Positions 30,299-43,450 of a stretch of DNA of 64,000 nt are shown piece after piece. The stretch is from contig OY970359.1 of assembly GCA_963718665.1 (NCBI GenBank), forward strand, positions 1,856,001 through 1,920,000, in the 5' to 3' direction. The notes under the pieces were generated by a model, which worked only from the letters and a program-made list of their open reading frames with translations, was not told the origin of the DNA and made no database searches. Positions within the stretch are counted from its first letter, which is position 1, and each line of letters starts with the position of its first letter. Position numbers and translations under genes: made by a program. This DNA is from an uncultured Phycisphaerales bacterium. GTDB lineage: Bacteria > Planctomycetota > Phycisphaerae > Sedimentisphaerales > Anaerobacaceae.

Positions 30299-30613
30299 TT
30301 AGTGGGATTGTTGATGTTCAGGCGATATATCTTCGTTGCTGACAAGAGTCAAGCCAACCGGATCGAATGGTTCCTGTGTCTGCCCGATATGGACTATGTT
30401 TTCTGCTTTAACGCTCACAACATTACCTTTTAGGCCTTTTTCATCTTCCCAGACGTAGTATTGGCCACAACTACTCTTGTCACTGGCCGGGATATAAAAA
30501 AGAGGGCAGCAGACCTTCGTGCTTGCATTACGGCCATTTTCACTGCGGTGTTTAATGAGAATCTTTTTCCTGCCTTTGATCGCCTGAATAAAAATATCAT
30601 GGTCACGGTGCAT
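30299..30613 (-). CDS. Small stand-alone WYL-like domain protein
   Basis: FIQAIKGRKKILIKH...TKVCCP...YYVW...NIVHIGQTQEPFDP follows the WYL layout (AI.....V...Y / R...P / I......T.E.F). Confidence 0.6.
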   Translation of the reverse strand: MHRDHDIFIQAIKGRKKILIKHRSENGRNASTKVCCPLFYIPASDKSSCGQYYVWEDEKGLKGNVVSVKAENIVHIGQTQEPFDPVGLTLVSNEDISPEHQQSH

Positions 30614-31016
30614 ATAATCTCCTGATTACTTTATTATTGTCGGAGGCGCAAATCCGAAATAGCTTATTGCGCACCCAGCAAATTAATCGGCTTGATGTGC
30701 CGGTTTCGCAGGCGACGAGATGCTCGGCTTTTTTATAAAGGTATAGTGCCCGACAAACACCATTTCTTTCTGTTTTGCTTATATTGCCGTCCATCCCGCA
30801 CGCATTGATAAAATAATCAGCAACCGCTTTGGCAACTTCCCCTGAAATCGTTTCGATGTATGCAAACTTGTGATTTTGTACCTTATGAAGGCGGGAAACT
30901 TCCGCGATGGGAGCGATGGGGTTATCAGCCAACCCTATGAACCAATCCTCATATTCGCCACCCCCTTGGCGGATATAGGTTTCCATCTGTTCAATGATGT
31001 ATTTCTGGTTACCCAC
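30603..31016 (-). CDS. Small protein with degenerate GIY-YIG-like fold
   Basis: GGEYEDWFIGLADNP...LHKV...AKAVADYF...GMDG...LYLYKK resembles the W-Y-V-G-I...P..RL..H family. GTG start; overlaps the next gene. Confidence 0.55.
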   Translation of the reverse strand: MGNQKYIIEQMETYIRQGGGEYEDWFIGLADNPIAPIAEVSRLHKVQNHKFAYIETISGEVAKAVADYFINACGMDGNISKTERNGVCRALYLYKKAEHLVACETGTSSRLICWVRNKLFRICASDNNKVIRRLYAP

Positions 31017-31456: not shown

Positions 31457-32455
31457 TTATTGTGAATCTACTATTCTCGATGCTATTTGAACAATCCTTT
31501 GTCTTAATGCCTTAGGCGCAAGGACCTCCACCTGGTCACCATAGCCTAAAATCCACCATGTTATCTCATTAAGCCCATCCACACGGAATTTCAGTACCAC
31601 CGAGCCATCATCCTCAAAAGAGGCGGTCTGTGTTTCATGCCATCGGACTTCAGCCACTTCCGCAGCGATTCGCGGGCAGAATCTCAATTCGACCTCGTAG
31701 ATTTGGCCTTCTCGCAATAATGACCAGGCATACCCAAAATACTCGCGAAGGTCGAATTTCTCATCTTCCACAAAATATCTGTCTAAAGGACTCAACTGTG
31801 TGATATGATTCAACTCGAAAGTATGCACCGCCTTGTGAAAACTCGATTCTCCGATTACATGCCAGGTGTGCGAGGAATATACCAGGTAATAAGGATTTAA
31901 GTCCGTTGTGACAGACCTTTGTTCGACAGGCAAATAGCAATGAATGGCCAAAACCCGCTTTACTTGAATAGCTTCCAGAACCTGCATAAATGTTTTATCC
32001 AACAGGTCCATACTGGCTTTAGGGGCAGGCCTAATTGAGATAAATCGAAACGATTCGTCGCAAAAATGTCTTACTTCCCGTCTCAGGCAATTCTCAATTT
32101 TAAGGGATAACAGCCGGGCAGGATAAGTAAAAGGAAGCTGTATATTGTGGCTCGCCTCGTGAAGCAGTAACAGCAAGCTGAATGCTTCCTCTTTGGACAG
32201 AGCAGGTGTTGGAAGAGGTGATTGAAGGTCTAAAGTATAACAGTGGCGCCTTGTGTTGAAACGACAAGGCAAACCCGCCCCTTGTAGCTCTTTCAGGTCT
32301 CTATATACAGTGCGACGGCTTTTTCCCAGTATCTCGGTTAATTCCGAAATTGCATAGCCCCTCCGGGATTGCAACGCTGTCAATAACTGCATTATTCTGC
32401 TGGTTCTGCTGTTTTTCATACGCCCTTTTGTTTTGATGCTCGGTTTATATGCCAT
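31457..32455 (-). CDS. HTH-WYL-WCX transcriptional regulator (PafC/DriD-like)
   Basis: ELTEILGKSRRTVYRDLKEL HTH; LNPYYLVYSSHTWHVIG...FELNHI WYL; EITWWILGYGDQVEVLAP..LR WCX. Confidence 0.93.
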   Translation of the reverse strand: MAYKPSIKTKGRMKNSRTSRIMQLLTALQSRRGYAISELTEILGKSRRTVYRDLKELQGAGLPCRFNTRRHCYTLDLQSPLPTPALSKEEAFSLLLLLHEASHNIQLPFTYPARLLSLKIENCLRREVRHFCDESFRFISIRPAPKASMDLLDKTFMQVLEAIQVKRVLAIHCYLPVEQRSVTTDLNPYYLVYSSHTWHVIGESSFHKAVHTFELNHITQLSPLDRYFVEDEKFDLREYFGYAWSLLREGQIYEVELRFCPRIAAEVAEVRWHETQTASFEDDGSVVLKFRVDGLNEITWWILGYGDQVEVLAPKALRQRIVQIASRIVDSQ

Positions 32456-32693: not shown

Positions 32694-33398
32694 GTGTGGG
32701 CTGTGAAAAGATTGATTTTTTTCATACTGCTTCTGGTTGCAACAGTGCCAGCAGCGCACGCCGAAGTATTCACAAGAGTTTGTATGGCGGATGGCGATAC
32801 ACCGCTTGAGCTTGCCGACCCCTGTATTCCATTCGTTTACCGCCCAATTATGGTTGGAACGCACCTTACTATAGTTATTAGTTCTGATACGAGTGATTAC
32901 TGGGACGGCGGCGAACTGGCTCTTTGGGATGCAAACCAGAATTACGGTGTTTTGTCCGGAGGTTCACAATTACCGGCTGCCGGCGATATGGCCATAGTAT
33001 GGCCTGTTGTAGAAGCTGAGGAAGTGGACGGGCAGTGGCACGATGCCAATGGTTTTCAGTTTTCCGGGTCCCCGGACTCTACTGCCCTAATCGGCGACTG
33101 GTTTATAGTTGATTATAATGCCATTAGCGTGGGTACCTGTTCTGTTATCTTTTACAACTACGACGTGGATTGGAATAACCCGTTATACGCAATGTCTTTC
33201 ACTCATGTCGTAACACGCGATTTTAATGGTGATGGAATAGTCAACTTTGAGGATTTTGCGGTGCTTGGCTTGAATTGGCGAAGAACCGGCTGTTCTGAAC
33301 CGGATAATTGCTCGGGAACCGACCTTGATGCCGATGGGTATGTAGGTATCAGCGACTTAATGCAATTTGCCGAATACTGGCTGGAAAAGACCAGATAA
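32694..33398 (+). CDS. Secreted protein with C-terminal dockerin-like (paired EF-hand) module
   Basis: Signal peptide ending AHA. DFNGDGIVNFEDF...W and DLDADGYVGISDL...F...WL. Confidence 0.85.
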   Translation: MWAVKRLIFFILLLVATVPAAHAEVFTRVCMADGDTPLELADPCIPFVYRPIMVGTHLTIVISSDTSDYWDGGELALWDANQNYGVLSGGSQLPAAGDMAIVWPVVEAEEVDGQWHDANGFQFSGSPDSTALIGDWFIVDYNAISVGTCSVIFYNYDVDWNNPLYAMSFTHVVTRDFNGDGIVNFEDFAVLGLNWRRTGCSEPDNCSGTDLDADGYVGISDLMQFAEYWLEKTR

Positions 33399-33598: not shown

Positions 33599-35410
33599 AT
33601 GTGTTATGAACACACGAATATTTTAGGAATTATCGTCATAGTGCTGCTTGGCAGCGGAATCGCAGTTGCAGACAGACCCTTAGAGCGTGCGGAGCTTCTG
33701 CAAATCTTTGAACAATTAACCGCTCAACCCCGCAAGACCTGGATTGCTGCGGGCACAATTGAGGCGTCACATCAGGAATATGGTGCATCAGCCGTTACCG
33801 ACGAAAATGAGATTAACCGGCAAATCGCCGCGGAGATTCAGCGGTATCGGAATGAGTCAAACAAAAGAGAGCTTACCGAAGAGATGCAGAAAATGAAACT
33901 TGACGCGATGCCTTTTAACATTCGCCACAAGTTATCCAACGAATACACAATGAATTCTACGGAACAGGTAAAATTTGACAGTAAGCGGTTCTACTGGGAG
34001 ATTGACGTTGATTCAAGGTCTGATTCGGTAAAACCGGGCAGGGAGTTAGCCGGCAATTTCATGACTCAGCAATTCGACCTCGGCGGAAATCAAAAACGTA
34101 TATTTGCCTGGGATGGCGATAAGTACACCACGTATTTCCTGCCTGCCAACAATGCTATTGTCGATGCAGGGGGAAATAGCCCGCATTCTGTAAACGGGCC
34201 TTTAACCGCAGGGGTGGTGCCGTGGGGATACGGTCGCTACACATACAGTAATCTTTGTGCCGTTGAGTCATCGGGCATTGAATCGACCGCCAACGGTGAG
34301 ACACAAATAGTTTTGACGCTCAAAGAAGCCGACGGCAGCGAAAGTAACTTTACACTGGACTCCGCCAAAAACTATGCCTTAATAAATTGTTTAATAGGAA
34401 AACCGGATGGCTCGACAATTTCAAGACAGTATTCGGATTATGCATTTATCGCAGGCGGCTGGGTCCCTAAAACCATCCTGATTGAACGATTTGAAGCCGA
34501 CTCGAGTCGGCTGAAAGCCCGCGACTTGTGGAATCTGACTACTATAGACGATAATGTTCCAGAGGCAAACGCTTTTGATGTCCCTTATGGGTCGGATGCG
34601 CTGGTTGAGTATTATTCCGATGGGAGCACTAAGCCGGCAATGTACCGGCAATCAAACGCTGCTGATACAAACCAGCTCCTGACGAAACGTTTGGCGATAG
34701 TCAAATCAAATGGAGCGAATACGCGAAATTGCGCAACAATAGCGATAAGATACGTCGCGTCGGAATTCGGTGTTACAATTTCAGATAAAGATCTTGCATC
34801 CCTCGTTAATCAGACCAGTGGCACTACGAGTATGTACGATATGAAATACTTCCTGCAGGGATTTGGACTATATTGTCGAGCGGTTAAGACAAACATCGAT
34901 ACGCTCAAAAATCTAAACGGCTGCAAGGCAATTTTATATTTCCCAGGGAGGAACCATTACGTTGTCGTGGACCGCATTGATGACCAATATGTCTGGATAA
35001 CAGACCTTTCGTCGGCCAAATTCTATTACCGCACGGAAATCAGCTTTTTTGATATGGACTGGACAGACGGGGCGGCTTTACTTGTTTCGAAACAGCCGAT
35101 TCAGGGCGATTTTAATGAAATCGGCAGCGACCAGCAGGCAGGTATAACCGGCGGCGACGGTTACGCCTGCACATATCTAATTCAGCAATACAATGTCATC
35201 TTTTGCAGCTATGTTGCCGGTTTGTGTGGAGGTAATTACTATGTATATTACACACGCTATGGATGCCAAGCTGACGATAGCGGCGGCAGTTGCTCCAGCA
35301 CAAAAATGGTCAGATGTATGTCAACCCCCTGCATTAACGACCCTGATATCCTTGAGGCCTGCAATGTGACCGGCGTGTGGACATGTTATTATATGATGGC
35401 ATGTATGTAA
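33599..35410 (+). CDS. Secreted polyprotein: N-terminal beta-rich domain + C39-like peptidase + double-Gly leader + 10-Cys C-terminal peptide
   Basis: AGAGGAG RBS and signal peptide. RNCATIAI (Cys), GTTSMYDM, RNHYVVV (His), VWITD (Asp). FNEIGSDQQAGITGG followed by 84 aa with 10 Cys. Confidence 0.85.
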   Translation: MCYEHTNILGIIVIVLLGSGIAVADRPLERAELLQIFEQLTAQPRKTWIAAGTIEASHQEYGASAVTDENEINRQIAAEIQRYRNESNKRELTEEMQKMKLDAMPFNIRHKLSNEYTMNSTEQVKFDSKRFYWEIDVDSRSDSVKPGRELAGNFMTQQFDLGGNQKRIFAWDGDKYTTYFLPANNAIVDAGGNSPHSVNGPLTAGVVPWGYGRYTYSNLCAVESSGIESTANGETQIVLTLKEADGSESNFTLDSAKNYALINCLIGKPDGSTISRQYSDYAFIAGGWVPKTILIERFEADSSRLKARDLWNLTTIDDNVPEANAFDVPYGSDALVEYYSDGSTKPAMYRQSNAADTNQLLTKRLAIVKSNGANTRNCATIAIRYVASEFGVTISDKDLASLVNQTSGTTSMYDMKYFLQGFGLYCRAVKTNIDTLKNLNGCKAILYFPGRNHYVVVDRIDDQYVWITDLSSAKFYYRTEISFFDMDWTDGAALLVSKQPIQGDFNEIGSDQQAGITGGDGYACTYLIQQYNVIFCSYVAGLCGGNYYVYYTRYGCQADDSGGSCSSTKMVRCMSTPCINDPDILEACNVTGVWTCYYMMACM

Positions 35411-35529
35411 TTAGTTGTGACTTTATTGTGGTATTGCCACGTTAAGGTGGTACTGTAGTATACAGGTTATCATACATTGTTGCTCTGACGCACTTGACTT
35501 TCTTTGACGCAGGCCATACAGTGTTGGCT

Positions 35530-36354
35530 ATGCGGCGATTTGGGCTAGTCCTGATTGAATTGATTTTAGTAATAGGAATTATTGCTGTTCTCTTCGCGTT
35601 TTTGGTCCCTTCTCTTCAGAGGTCCCGGCTTCAGGCAAAAGCGGCTGTCTGTATGTCCAATATCAGACAGTTGAATACGGCCTTGTCAATGTACGTTACT
35701 GACACCGGCAAATTCCCTTACGGATTTTATGACCTGCCTCCACCTAATCCACCTATTCCGCCTCCGTCCGGTGGTTATGCTGGTTTATCTCAATATGACA
35801 GAAGGGGGTGGTGGTGGTTTAACTATCTTGAGGACATTTATAAGAAAAATATGGCTGGGAAGACCGTGCTTCAATGCCCTTCCAAACAGCTACAACAGAC
35901 AGCGCTAAAAAATGATATTCTTTGCGGAAACTACGGCGTTAATCTGTTGATTTGCAGAATGTCGAGTGGCGGCGGGGACCAGAATGAAATAGGTAATCCG
36001 ATAGGGATTTCGGAAGTTTTACGGCCGGGGCAGACATTGCTCATAGTCGATAGCGGCTACGCAATCATAAGCTGGCAGCACGCGGCTGATATTCTACCTC
36101 AGGGGATAACGCTTGGCACCATACCATTAGAAAATACTGCTTACGTTCCGGGCCTGTCGATAAATTGCCAAAGACAACTTTTGCCGGAACAGGAAACAGA
36201 TGCTTTATATGGGAGACATCCCCAGATGACGGTTAACGTTGGATTTGTTGATGGTCACGTAGCCCGCATCAAAGCGGAAGATTTGCTCGTCAAAAAAAAG
36301 CCCGACGGCACCTACGAAAATCGGTTTCCGCTATGGGCGCCATGTTCTCAATAG
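35530..36354 (+). CDS. Prepilin-type N-terminal / H-X9-DG (DUF1559-like) protein
   Basis: MRRFGLVLIELILVIGIIAVL..LVPSL, CMSNIRQL, CPS, RHPQMTVNVGFVDGHV. Confidence 0.9.
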   Translation: MRRFGLVLIELILVIGIIAVLFAFLVPSLQRSRLQAKAAVCMSNIRQLNTALSMYVTDTGKFPYGFYDLPPPNPPIPPPSGGYAGLSQYDRRGWWWFNYLEDIYKKNMAGKTVLQCPSKQLQQTALKNDILCGNYGVNLLICRMSSGGGDQNEIGNPIGISEVLRPGQTLLIVDSGYAIISWQHAADILPQGITLGTIPLENTAYVPGLSINCQRQLLPEQETDALYGRHPQMTVNVGFVDGHVARIKAEDLLVKKKPDGTYENRFPLWAPCSQ

Positions 36355-36361
36355 CTGCAGA

Positions 36362-38044
36362 TTAGAACGACATAGCTTCTGCTTTTGCAAGTATTTCTTT
36401 GTCGCCGGGGTATTCGATAATCATAATCGATTCGAGGACCGGCTGAAAATCAGATGCTGATTGTTTAAACCACTGAACTTTTTGTGGCAGATTAGTAGAG
36501 TTATCCATAAAAATACGCCAACTCTTTTGCGTCGTTGAACCATCATAGGCCTTCTCGGCCCAACTCAGTTCATATACTTTAGTATTGCTGGTTTTAACGG
36601 TAAGCTCGGAATTCGTTATCTCAGACCACCTTGCGTCCGCGGGGATGTCGGCGGATTTGTCGAATGGCATTATGCCTAATGAACCGTAAATCATATTCCT
36701 TAAAGCGACAAGATTATCACTGCTCAATGAAATCTGCTTAATTGCGCCGGTGCCCAAATCTTTATTCTTTTTCACTCGCTCGAAAGCGCTCCAAAGTGTA
36801 AATTCATTTTTTGTCTTAATAATGTAAATCTCAGAACTTCTGGATACCCAAACCTCCTGCACGGGTTTTTGATTATCGGCAACAAAGCTGGAAATATGGA
36901 TATTCTTAACCACATCGATGGCCCTGTAAATCTGTTCAATGCCAAGACCTTTTGCGGTATGAACGTTAATAAACAGGCCTACTGCCACCATTATCACCGC
37001 TGCAACCGGAATCGCCACTTTCAATAGCGGTCTAATACTCTTTGATGCAGATTTGAGTTTTACGGTTGGTTCAAACTTCTCAGAATGTGGTTGCTCCCGG
37101 CTGTCCAAATTGGCCATTTCCACCCTTACAGGGAAACCAGCGTATATGCTTTCTGTCTCAACCTTGGCAGTTGTGTCTATGTGGAAGACCGTCGCAACGC
37201 CGGATTCGGGCCTGTCGGCAATGTCATAAATCGTCTTGTGCAATTGCTGGATTTTGTCAAGGCACTCGGCGCAGCAGACAATGTGTGTGGTTAAAGATTT
37301 GCGGAATTTGGCATATTCGTCGCTTGTCGGGTCTATGCCGTATGGAATACAATAATCAAAGACATCAATTGCTCCTACGGATGAACATGGGAAGATACTC
37401 TTCTGTGTTTCATTATCGCTATGCAGTATTTTTGTTTGTTCCAGGATTATCTGACGGAATTTGTACAGTTCCTGCCGACATTTAGGACATAAAGATAAAT
37501 GCCTTAAAGTTTTTGCATCTGTTCGGCCAAAGGCCATCGCAACAACAGTTGGGATTGCCTCACGAGCTGTGGTGCAATCTGTTTCGTCGGTATCAAGTTC
37601 ATCTGCAAACAATTCACTGAGGGTTATAAGCTGTTTGTGGCTGAGGCCCAGATTTTGCAGCTTTTTGGAATCCTCTTTACATTGGTCGCAGTTATCGATA
37701 TGGGCCGTTATGGGCGTAGGCATCCTGATTTGCGTCGTCGGAGCCAAAAGATTCGGCAAAAAAGGCCTTACATCAGCGCAATTAACGTGTTTACCCACAA
37801 ACGAAAAGTGCAGCTTGAGTATGGCGGTAGTCGCCATCTGACGTTGTACCATGTGTGTTTGTGGATGCTCTTTGCATTCGGCCAGCATTGCTTCAAGCCG
37901 GCTCATTTGCTCACGACAGTAAAGACATCCCATGATGTGGTCGATGACTTCGCTGGGAACAGACCGTTCGGTCTCATCACGTAAAAAGTCAAAGTAGTGC
38001 CGCTCGGCTTCCGCACAAAATTTGTTATAATTGGGTGCTATCAT
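36362..38044 (-). CDS. Membrane-anchored anti-sigma factor with four tandem HxxxCxxC zinc-finger motifs and a periplasmic domain
   Basis: HIMGCLYC, HIDNCDQC, HLSLCPKC, HIVCCAEC; TM VAIPVAAVIMVAVGLFI; overlaps the ECF gene; GAGG RBS before ATG 38044. Confidence 0.85.
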   Translation of the reverse strand: MIAPNYNKFCAEAERHYFDFLRDETERSVPSEVIDHIMGCLYCREQMSRLEAMLAECKEHPQTHMVQRQMATTAILKLHFSFVGKHVNCADVRPFLPNLLAPTTQIRMPTPITAHIDNCDQCKEDSKKLQNLGLSHKQLITLSELFADELDTDETDCTTAREAIPTVVAMAFGRTDAKTLRHLSLCPKCRQELYKFRQIILEQTKILHSDNETQKSIFPCSSVGAIDVFDYCIPYGIDPTSDEYAKFRKSLTTHIVCCAECLDKIQQLHKTIYDIADRPESGVATVFHIDTTAKVETESIYAGFPVRVEMANLDSREQPHSEKFEPTVKLKSASKSIRPLLKVAIPVAAVIMVAVGLFINVHTAKGLGIEQIYRAIDVVKNIHISSFVADNQKPVQEVWVSRSSEIYIIKTKNEFTLWSAFERVKKNKDLGTGAIKQISLSSDNLVALRNMIYGSLGIMPFDKSADIPADARWSEITNSELTVKTSNTKVYELSWAEKAYDGSTTQKSWRIFMDNSTNLPQKVQWFKQSASDFQPVLESIMIIEYPGDKEILAKAEAMSF

Positions 38045-38624
38045 CTTCAACCTCTTGTTCAATTGCCAGAAATTTTTTAACCTTCCTAAGCCCGGTGGAA
38101 ATATATCTTACTACAGAACGATCATCAATACTCATTCTGTCAGCCGCTTCTTTTATGGATAAATCATCACAGTATCTTGATGCAATAGCTTTAAATTCAT
38201 TCTTCGTTACCCGATTTCTGATTAATTCTATCATCCGATCTGCCAGCTCTTTCTCTATTAAGGCGTCTTCGGGCAGCCGATTGTTGACGGTTATTTTGTT
38301 ATAATTGGCACATCTGTGTGTCATTTCCTGGTATTTTTTGAGGTGTCGGATATGGTCTGTTGTATCATTGATTATCGCCCTGTAGATATAACCTTTGATG
38401 TCCTGCACTTCCGCCGGGACAGGTCTTGATGCAAGCGAAAGGAAGAAATTATGGAACAAATCTTCGGCCATGCTTTCATCCTTAATTTTGTGGCGAATAA
38501 CAGCGCGGATAAAATCGCCGTGCTCAAAAAAGATTACCGTGGCACGTTGAACGTCGCCTGATACGTCACACCCCTGTTCTATGGTGTTCTTTTCGCTCAC
38601 CTGCGACTCACTCCCAAAAGGCAA
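38025..38624 (-). CDS. ECF sigma factor (start uncertain)
   Basis: AEDLFHNFFLSL, YIYRAIINDTTDHIR (region 2); LSIKEAADRMSIDDRSVVRYISTGLRKVK (region 4). Confidence 0.9.
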   Translation of the reverse strand: MPFGSESQVSEKNTIEQGCDVSGDVQRATVIFFEHGDFIRAVIRHKIKDESMAEDLFHNFFLSLASRPVPAEVQDIKGYIYRAIINDTTDHIRHLKKYQEMTHRCANYNKITVNNRLPEDALIEKELADRMIELIRNRVTKNEFKAIASRYCDDLSIKEAADRMSIDDRSVVRYISTGLRKVKKFLAIEQEVEDDSTQL

Positions 38625-42415: not shown

Positions 42416-43450
42416 ATGACAGCCCAGCGACATCTAAGACAAGCCGTCTTGTGGGAACAGGCACAAGGCAATAAGGTGCAGTGTTTTCTTTGCGCGCACC
42501 GTTGCCTGATTGGCGAGGGCAAAACCGGTATATGCGCCGTCCGCAGGAATATCGGGGGCGTTCTGTATTCGCTCAATTACGACAAGGTTGTCTCGGCGAA
42601 TCCCGACCCGATAGAGAAAAAGCCGTTGTTTCATTTCCAGCCGGGAAGTAAGAGTTTTTCGATTGCGACGATGGGCTGCAACTTCCGCTGCGAATTCTGC
42701 CAGAACTGGCAGATAAGCCAGGCGGTCGTCGAAACCGGCGAATTTGAGGGCGAGGCCATAAGCCCGGAACAAATTGTAAACGCCGCCATTCAGTACGGCT
42801 GCAGAAGCATTTCCTACACATATACCGAACCGACCATTTTTATGGAACTGGCCGCCGACTGCGCCAGATTGGCAAAGCAACACGGTCTGAAAAACGTCTT
42901 CGTCAGCAATGGATATCAGACCAGGGAGGCGATTGATTTCGCAGCCGAGTGGTTGGATGCAATCAATTTGGACCTCAAGGCCTTCAGCGAGGATTATTAT
43001 CACCGGCTGTGCAAGGCAAAGCTCCAGCCCGTCCTTGATACTATTGAATACATCGCCAAACATACCAATATATGGATGGAAACGACAACGCTGCTGCTGC
43101 CCGATGAAAATGATTCCGATGAGGAATTAAAACAGCTTGCCGATTTCCTTGTTACAAAAGCTGGCCCCGATTTCCCCTGGCACGTCAGCAGATTTTACCC
43201 GCAATATAAATATACCAACTCCCAGCCCACATCGCCCAAATCGCTCCAGCGGGCTTATGAAATCGGCAAACAGGCAGGCCTGCACTACGTCTATCTTGGC
43301 AACGTCCCCGGCTCAAAGCAGGAAAATACATATTGTTACAAATGCGGCCACCCGCTCATCGAACGAATCGGCTATAATGTCGCCTCGAACAAAATTAAAA
43401 AATCAACCTGCCCCGATTGCGGCACCCAAATCGCCGGGCGATGGGAATAG
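42416..43450 (+). CDS. amrS: AmmeMemoRadiSam system radical SAM enzyme
   Basis: CFLCAHRC, DPIEKKPLFHF.PG, CNFRCEFCQNWQISQ, YTYTEP. Confidence 0.93.
   Translation: MTAQRHLRQAVLWEQAQGNKVQCFLCAHRCLIGEGKTGICAVRRNIGGVLYSLNYDKVVSANPDPIEKKPLFHFQPGSKSFSIATMGCNFRCEFCQNWQISQAVVETGEFEGEAISPEQIVNAAIQYGCRSISYTYTEPTIFMELAADCARLAKQHGLKNVFVSNGYQTREAIDFAAEWLDAINLDLKAFSEDYYHRLCKAKLQPVLDTIEYIAKHTNIWMETTTLLLPDENDSDEELKQLADFLVTKAGPDFPWHVSRFYPQYKYTNSQPTSPKSLQRAYEIGKQAGLHYVYLGNVPGSKQENTYCYKCGHPLIERIGYNVASNKIKKSTCPDCGTQIAGRWE

Follow-up and report, generated by a model that had tools for sequence, protein, structure and literature searches.

We examined a 64,000-nucleotide window of contig OY970359.1 (positions 1,856,001 to 1,920,000 of the forward strand) from the genome of an uncultured Phycisphaerales bacterium, and in particular one gene within it (33599..35410; positions here are those of the whole window, on the plus strand unless a minus is given), an uninterrupted open reading frame (ORF) of 603 amino acids that appears to encode an exported protein made up of a LolA-like domain, a C39 peptidase, a leader-like segment of the double-glycine type and a Cys-rich tail. 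A first-pass annotation had read this gene as a polyprotein whose own peptidase releases a disulfide-rich toxin or signal peptide. Its coordinates hold in the translation: Cys378 is encoded at 34730, His453 at 34955 and Asp469 at 35003, the string FNEIGSDQQAGITGG that it placed directly after the C39 region is residues 505-519, and the tail is exactly 84 residues (520-603; 35156-35407) with 10 Cys. Two short ORFs on the opposite strand (50 and 76 amino acids) are without support.

The peptidase domain (Peptidase_C39) occupies residues 355-499 (34661..35095) and is recognized by sequence and by predicted fold alike. Pfam Peptidase_C39 (PF03412) matches residues 374-499 at E 2.2e-17 and 63.5 bits against a cut-off of 22, a scan of the window's genome finds the domain again at 67 bits, and a family profile of 96 members, run against the PDB, retrieves the peptidase domain (PEP) of ComA (3k8u) at E 8.7e-9. 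When model residues 355-500 are compared by VIA-align, they align with LahT150 (6mpz_A) at Z 14.0 (root-mean-square deviation, rmsd, 2.5; 127 residues aligned), and the domain aligns with ComA PEP (5xe8_A) and PCAT1 (8vp3_A), both at Z 13.9; Foldseek gives template modelling scores of 0.72-0.75 on the target for ComA/LahT/PCAT1-type peptidases. NCBIfam returns only matches far below threshold, to FapD and to C39 exporters fused to ATP-binding cassette (ABC) domains (TIGR01193, 10 bits with a cut-off of 524).

The Cys, His and Asp that the first-pass annotation had picked out as standing in C39 order all align with the catalytic residues of ComA: Cys378 (in NCAT; 34730..34732) with the Cys of DTRDCG, His453 (34955..34957) with the His of LQHYYVV and Asp469 (35003..35005), the third residue of the triad, with the Asp of IIGDPDP. 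Of the 216 unique relatives that span this domain, 215 retain the Cys, 215 the His and 212 the Asp, and the sole Cys/His exception is the second, degenerate C39 copy of a variant of 804 amino acids (P0209). Judged from this conservation and from the matches above, the C39 domain is real and is under selection for catalysis.

Behind the peptidase lies the leader-like segment (residues 500-519; 35096..35155), which is internal to the chain of 603 residues rather than N-terminal on a small separate precursor, and which was delimited from position tallies, from its register and from the structure model and docking described below. According to a review of RiPP leader proteases (PMC10885120), what ComA recognizes is Phe(-15), Ile(-12), Leu(-7) and Ile(-4) followed by GG, GA or GS; the review describes LahT as recognizing helix-borne hydrophobic residues at -4, -7 and -12. 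Numbered from a proposed cut after G519, the window copy has F505 at -15, I508 at -12, Q513 at -7, I516 at -4 and, at -2 and -1, the pair G518-G519 (35150..35155), our candidate scissile site. Tallied in the same way over 232 unique family sequences, the segment carries F at -15 in 148, I or L at -12 in 218 (167 and 51; 230 with V and M), L at -7 in 164, I at -4 in 191 (216 with L, V and M) and G at -2 in 226, with G, A or S at -1 in 208; the -2/-1 pair is GA in 88, GG in 73 and GS in 41, together 202. Position -8 is Q or E in 143 of these sequences and position -13 is E or D in 160.

The spacing from -12 to -2 is identical in 232 of 235 sequences, while the connector between the last C39 strand and the leader is 11 to 17 residues long and a stretch of 6 to 12 leads from G518 to the first Cys of the tail. 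Fixed spacing between variable flanks is, in sequence terms, the pattern of a recognized helix held in register between free linkers, and tallies of this kind mark the motif as conserved across the family and not a chance string; of the glycine pair on which the first-pass annotation had built its claim, the family conserves the G at -2 and, at -1, a small residue (G, A or S, in the counts above). Searched against NCBIfam at E<=10, pieces of 35, 84 and 109 amino acids gave no match, short leader models being easily lost by filters.

The three-dimensional model agrees with this register. From an input of 96 diverse sequences, AlphaFold2 (AF2) predicts the full chain as one compact protein with a mean predicted local distance difference test (pLDDT) of 94.0 and a predicted template modelling score (pTM) of 0.90 (an earlier input of 20 close sequences gave a pLDDT of 49.8); segment 500-520 is modelled at pLDDT 90-98, with a helix at 510-515 and an extended stretch at 517-518. 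Docked as separate chains, the leader piece (500-534) and the C39 domain (352-499) score 0.62 (0.59, 0.62 and 0.66 in the three runs), the best of three controls scoring 0.05; the mark applied to such scores was reached by 116 of 157 solved complexes and by 2 of 215 mismatched pairs. The runs share at least 76% of their contacts, with a partner pLDDT of at least 62. On the side of the enzyme the predicted interface takes in residues 377-379 (with Cys378), 452-454 (with His453), 407-413 (SGTTSMY) and 425-431, and on that of the peptide residues 505-510 and 512-521, G518-G519 included. Residues 407-413 belong to the stretch that the first-pass annotation had likened to a C39 motif of the GTS..DL type. 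It had also asked whether the ITGG helix docks in the active site, and such docking is predicted for the leader-like piece. Contacts of 411/409 with 516/517 and of 428-430 with 506-508 agree with the two-residue strands that AF2 places at 410-411, 506-507 and 517-518, if these strands are matched as we suppose, and connector residues 492, 495 and 497 touch leader residues 500-501 and 508. Docking of this type points to a likeness to solved C39-leader complexes, rather than to binding or cutting by the window copy itself.

The tail (residues 520-603; 35156..35407) is predicted to be a Cys-rich, beta-rich domain (AF2 pLDDT 84-97). Eight of its Cys are invariant or nearly so (C524, C536, C543, C556, C565, C578, C588 and C602), and exactly eight are present in 55 of 96 tails, the window tail having 10. 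No relative of the tail was found in the Atlas, in NCBIfam or, by profile, in the PDB (best E 0.24), and a credible Pfam match was found in 0 of 45 members (best 0.0035, in one member), with fold searches barely covering residues 501-603. Oxidative folding of the tail, through disulfides that these Cys would form, is plausible: the genome has two DsbA-like Thioredoxin_4 genes and a MauE/DoxX gene. Neither DsbB nor VKOR was found in the genome (completeness 94.6%).

Ahead of the peptidase, residues 25-350 (33671..34648) are predicted to form a half-barrel of the LolA/LolB type, although no Pfam or NCBIfam family matches them. Foldseek aligns residues ~30-330 with LolA3 9tp6 (E 1.6e-7), 3bk5 (9.6e-7) and 3buu (1.1e-6) as well as with 4z48, and VIA-align gives Z 12.6 to LolB 9tpm (rmsd 5.3, 217 aligned), 11.6 to 4z48 and 11.5 to 3bk5, at rmsd values of about 5. 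The alignment row of 9tpm spans model residues 31 to 575, which hints that strands of the tail are laid against the LolA-like sheet in the model. The first-pass annotation had taken the N-terminal region for a carrier or chaperone, and the idea of a carrier fits the predicted fold.

A Sec-type signal peptide is probable at residues 1-24 (33599..33670), with a hydrophobic core and an AVA/DRP junction at which A24 and R26 are invariant in the family alignment and D25 is at least 90% conserved. In DNA alignments the window copy lacks one base after a T-run (between 33624 and 33625) that is present in five of five close relatives (L002, L003, L004, L005 and L008). Because of this deficit, the start codon that the relatives use (33606 in the window, 7 nt after AGGAG) runs into a stop, reading MNTRIF and then TAG after six codons; the long frame is open only from the ATG at 33599, which abuts the ribosome-binding AGGAG. 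The resulting N-terminus, MCYEHTN..., has no basic residue, the relatives beginning MNTRIF... or MKTR.... Either the assembly is in error at this point or the 5' end has really changed; in both cases the mature protein is untouched.

With E<=1e-3 as the threshold, a word-indexed protein search returned 761 homologs. PF03412 is present in every one of the best 120, most of which have about 600 amino acids and are 56-91% identical over ~98% of the query. They come from metagenome-assembled genomes of Sedimentisphaerales/Phycisphaerae and, if they have a name, are called “cysteine peptidase family C39 domain-containing protein” or “hypothetical,” so that the source annotations of relatives name the C39 domain only. 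An exhaustive HMMER search of cluster representatives (50% clustering) gave 257 matches at E<=1e-3, of which 137 reach E<=1e-30, and many of the representatives retain the entire architecture down to ~28% identity. Of 301 genomes sampled from the class, 44 belong to the same order as the window, and 27 of these carry the protein, in one copy apiece; the other 257 genomes have none. The window genome itself (2.61 Mb, one contig) has a single copy.

The surroundings of the gene are conserved too and make up, with it, a cassette of five genes. A relative is encoded in 164 genome stretches, and in the 80 loci from which the following counts were taken the neighbors are constant in order, spacing and strand, most misses falling at contig ends. 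In 67 loci a secreted protein of 234 amino acids (32694..33398), with a unique N-domain and a C-terminal dockerin/EF-hand-like module (Dockerin_1, E 0.0011, below cut-off), is encoded on the same strand, about 1 kb upstream; a module of this kind ends 16 other ORFs of the genome as well (open frames of 257-1121 amino acids). The gap between this gene and the C39 gene (33399-33598) varies from 96 to 437 nt, with ~200-300 in most loci, and in roughly half of the loci a TCAACATTTT-like word stands ~110 nt upstream of the C39 start. Downstream on the same strand, ~1.9 kb after the C39 start and in 70 loci, follows a prepilin-type pseudopilin with a GspG-like N-terminus (35494..36354; DUF1559 / H-X9-DG type), which TIGR01710 matches at E 1.9e-8 and PF07596 at E 1.3e-4, each short of its cut-off. 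The prepilin-type N-terminus recurs on 18 other ORFs of the genome, and the remainder of the pseudopilin is unique.

Convergent with the C39 gene are two genes on the minus strand. One of them (36362..38062, minus), fixed in position and strand in 67 loci, encodes a membrane protein of 566 amino acids whose cytoplasmic part has four HxxxCxxC motifs of the zinc anti-sigma type, conserved in an alignment of 51 sequences, followed by one transmembrane segment and a conserved outer domain of ~195 amino acids; no part of this protein, the outer domain included, has a Pfam match. The other (38025..38624, minus), present in 58 loci, encodes a sigma factor of the extracytoplasmic function (ECF) type whose domains score just below cut-offs (Sigma70_r2 8e-5, r4_2 1.8e-4, Sigma70_ECF 7.7e-4), and the motifs together with this adjacent gene suggest an anti-sigma role for the membrane protein. 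No homology of its outer domain to the C39 protein was found (hhalign probability 1.4%). A search for a promoter motif shared by the plus-strand genes, which might link them to the sigma factor, gave only sigma-70-like hexamers and common k-mers.

A WYL/WCX helix-turn-helix regulator (31457..32455, minus; WCX E 5.1e-20, WYL 4.3e-7) is a loosely attached member, present in 36 loci; its place varies with lineage, ~2.2 kb upstream of the C39 gene or, past the sigma gene, ~5 kb downstream, and its strand is mostly minus (L013-L063 versus L002-L012). Two overlapping small ORFs of 104 and 137 amino acids (30299-31016, minus), without a Pfam family, occur in 11 loci, mainly of the closest relatives. 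A radical S-adenosylmethionine gene (42416-43450) was rejected as a member of the system, being present in 0 of 80 loci, and Rfam finds nothing between 31000 and 39500 at E<=0.1. The genes outside the cassette are housekeeping genes and are not syntenic, and the G+C content of the cassette is 0.45-0.46 against 0.48-0.55 in the flanks.

If the C39 domain is a peptidase, its own chain offers the only candidate substrate found in the cassette or the genome. A strict regular expression for the leader matches 59 of 81 C39 proteins and only 1 of 66 dockerin-like proteins, 1 of 71 pseudopilins, 1 of 68 anti-sigma-like proteins, 1 of 59 sigma factors and 0 of 37 WYL regulators; a leader hidden Markov model run over 49,260 six-frame genome segments finds the C39 protein alone (E 0.0013, the next best at 3.7). 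A stand-alone precursor of leader plus tail was not found when a query of 104 amino acids was compared with proteins of 57-182 amino acids, the three matches being N-truncated pieces of the long form. As the first-pass annotation had noted, there is no ABC exporter nearby: ABC exporter domains are absent from the C39 protein and its neighbors, none of the genome's three C39 ORFs (open frames of 607, 297 and 285 amino acids) is fused to one, and the conserved cassette contains no modifying enzyme, exporter or small immunity-like gene.

The other two C39 proteins of the genome were also looked at. One locus (L083, G000:C1:620898-624287) encodes a secreted protein of 353 amino acids, a protein of 276 amino acids with signal peptide, C39 domain and transmembrane segment, and a MauE/DoxX membrane protein, and DsbA-like Thioredoxin_4 genes lie ~1.5 kb upstream and ~5 kb downstream of it (G000:C1:619354 and 629463); perhaps this locus is a split counterpart with a tie to disulfide formation. 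No homology of its 353-residue protein to the LolA-like domain was detected by BLASTP or by hhalign (probability 0.8%). The third C39 protein (L084, G000:C1:2264107-2267511) has 272 amino acids, with N-terminal transmembrane segments and a C-terminal C39 domain, and an ORF of 373 amino acids ~270 nt away resembles a PilT-type ATPase, by eye only.

Taken together, we lean toward reading this protein as a Sec-exported pro-protein of three domains that processes itself once and in cis. Once the signal peptide had been removed, the chain would fold into the LolA-like domain, a competent C39 peptidase and the 84-residue, disulfide-rich beta domain, with the ComA-type leader between the latter two lying as a linker in the groove of its own peptidase and G518-G519 presented to Cys378 and His453. 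The peptidase would then cut after G519 in the same chain. Since the leader is upstream of the cut, it would stay tethered to the peptidase and probably fill the groove, leaving the enzyme spent: a single-use enzyme whose only job would be to give the tail a free N-terminus and to unlatch it, with the LolA-like domain holding the tail or handing it over. To our knowledge, this consequence of a tethered leader has not previously been pointed out for C39 enzymes. The original interpretation is kept in part, in that the C39 fold, the conserved G at -2 and small residue at -1 and the predicted docking all speak for it, whereas its expectation of a variable tail fails.

Several observations weigh against self-processing as just set out. 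The pair GG, GA or GS is absent in 30 of the 232 leaders, GL being present in 10, and position -1 is T, D, R, V, I, Y, M, Q, N, E or K in isolated sequences; the window copy has Q at -7 instead of L, as do 19 of the 232. In P0209 the leader and tail follow the degenerate second C39 copy (Cys to Tyr, His to Asn), the first being intact, so that a leader docked on the domain next to it is not necessarily cut by that domain. Position -6 before Cys378, which we take to be the place of the oxyanion-hole Gln in C39 peptidases, is mostly G or a gap, without a Gln; Q occurs at -2 in 121 and at -4 in 92 of the 216 sequences, and N at -1 in 212. The model may owe its favorable docking score to solved C39-leader complexes that it has memorized (6mpz, 6v9z, 7s5j), and the one-base deficit may mean that the window copy is poorly expressed. 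Finally, the model packs the tail tightly against the body (pTM 0.90), and the tail's mean pairwise identity (0.35) is like that of the LolA-like (0.34) and C39 (0.37) domains; being packed and evolving at the rate of the body, it fits a permanent domain as well as it fits a pro-form. With the tail packed in this way, “release” may mean unlatching and not diffusion.

Self-processing has its main rival in a latch that is never cut, in which the linker would be a pseudo-substrate and a permanent or displaceable auto-inhibitor, the tail a fixed accessory, and the real substrate some other protein of the periplasm or surface, possibly the anti-sigma-like protein in its outer domain. The compact model, a tail as conserved as the other domains, the non-canonical pairs in 30 of 232 leaders and the inactive C39 copy ahead of the P0209 leader would all be at home in such a latch, and so would the sigma/anti-sigma pair, which is always adjacent to the gene and is counted here because ECF pairs are commonly switched by regulated proteolysis. 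We nevertheless consider a latch rather unlikely. With G at -2 and G, A or S at -1 held in exact register at an intact Cys and His in the great majority of the family, a cut is to be expected, and neither the anti-sigma-like proteins (1 of 68) nor the other cassette proteins nor the genome offer a second ComA-type leader. There is also a precedent for cutting: StbD-CT, a CdiA-like C39 toxin of Citrobacter rodentium, processes itself in cis after a Gly-Gly in its own linker (bioRxiv 10.64898/2026.05.07.723447). The same precedent bears on processing in trans, in which one molecule would cut the leader of another, in a dimer or at a surface, depending on concentration or assembly. The isolated leader piece does dock as a separate chain, showing predicted recognition without a covalent link, and, to judge from P0209, a leader behind a different domain can be acted on by an active one; but in the single-chain model the leader lies on the C39 domain of its own chain at pLDDT 90-98, the connector (residues 492, 495 and 497) is in contact with it at 500-501 and 508, and StbD-CT acts in cis, and we hold trans cleavage to be improbable.

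The freed tail could also be an antibacterial product exported for competition, that is, a bacteriocin, the core of a peptide made on ribosomes and modified after translation (a RiPP) or a polymorphic toxin, a toxin being one of the two products that the first-pass annotation had named. Double-glycine leaders classically precede bacteriocins and RiPP cores (PMC10885120), and the tail is small, rich in Cys and aromatic. We nevertheless regard such a product as very improbable: the tail is no more variable than the rest of the protein (0.35 against 0.34-0.37), which makes a polymorphic toxin unlikely, the gene is present once per genome and is conserved vertically within a single order, there is no modifying enzyme, exporter or small immunity-like gene in the cassette, and the short matches to leader plus tail are fragments of the long form. 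Least probable of all, in our estimate, is that the C39 domain is a non-catalytic binding module that merely holds the linker, like the C39-like domains (CLDs) of repeats-in-toxin (RTX) exporters. The CLD of HlyB is a structural neighbor (3zua, Z 13.3), but CLDs lack the catalytic Cys, which the family keeps, like the His, in 215 of 216 sequences.

C39 peptidases are the textbook cytoplasmic gatekeepers of ABC exporters, and their substrates are separately encoded precursors of bacteriocins, quorum signals and RiPPs. In this family enzyme, recognition sequence and cargo are united in one chain that is probably exported by Sec. If the protein does cut itself, the double-glycine system serves anew, outside the cytoplasm, as a maturation switch that works once; the protein would supply a small self-cleaving tag, encoded genetically and with a recognition code already known, as well as a handle on an unstudied cassette conserved throughout an order of anaerobic Phycisphaerae from peat, fen and sediment. 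A bolder view, which we think has only a slender chance of being correct, is that the whole cassette is an extracytoplasmic signalling device: the single-use C39 peptidase would free a disulfide-locked domain of 9 kDa, which the LolA-like carrier, the dockerin-like protein and the pseudopilin would deliver to the outer domain of the anti-sigma-like protein, turning the ECF sigma factor on. Such a device would send an autocrine or quorum signal that is encoded as a protein and produced by autoprocessing in the style of Hedgehog, and, more generally, a C39 domain paired at fixed distance with a leader of its own would serve as a portable unit of self-cleavage in several exported architectures.

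We found no description of this architecture in the full-text literature, a coverage from which subscription journals are excluded, and the systems closest to it each share a part. The PEP domains of peptidase-containing ABC transporters (PCAT, or AMS; LahT150, ComA and PCAT1) have the same fold (Z 13.9-14.0), Pfam family and aligned Cys, His and Asp, and recognize the same type of motif, with hydrophobic residues at -15, -12, -7 and -4 before GG, GA or GS. They differ in that the PCAT peptidase is cytoplasmic and its leader stands at the N-terminus of a small separate precursor, whereas the window protein has neither membrane nor ATPase domain, is probably exported by its signal peptide, and carries its leader internally, C-terminal to the protease, where it would remain attached to the enzyme after the cut, the chain ending at residue 603 after leader and tail. 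StbD-CT (8ssm and 8ssk) is a structural neighbor of the window's C39 domain at Z 11.5 and 11.2; its Gly-Gly is N-terminal to the peptidase, and the peptidase is itself a toxin that cuts topoisomerases, in the context of contact-dependent growth inhibition (CDI) and with an immunity protein, whereas the window site is C-terminal with a full ComA-type leader and has no CDI context.

Other likenesses are more distant. The LolA/LolB superfamily, with its lipoprotein carriers, DUF1329 proteins and sensors of the RseB/MucB type, shares its fold, an unclosed beta-barrel with a helical lid, with residues ~30-330, but the window domain has no sequence-family match and is joined to a protease in one chain. 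In the Fap amyloid system of Pseudomonas the periplasmic C39-type peptidase is FapD, likewise an exported enzyme outside an ABC transporter; it gives a weak partial match in NCBIfam (E 1.6e-5, 24 bits with a cut-off of 330), yet it lacks a LolA-like domain, a leader in its own chain and a Cys-rich tail, and fap genes are absent near the window gene. The CLDs of RTX exporters, represented by 3zua, are neighbors in fold only, since the window family keeps its Cys. In strategy, the nearest parallels are Hedgehog, the self-cleaving autotransporters and the SEA and GPS domains, in which a one-shot intramolecular cleavage after export separates two functional parts; their chemistry and folds are unrelated, the protein of the window being, as it appears, a papain-like endopeptidase that would do the same with a conventional substrate motif.

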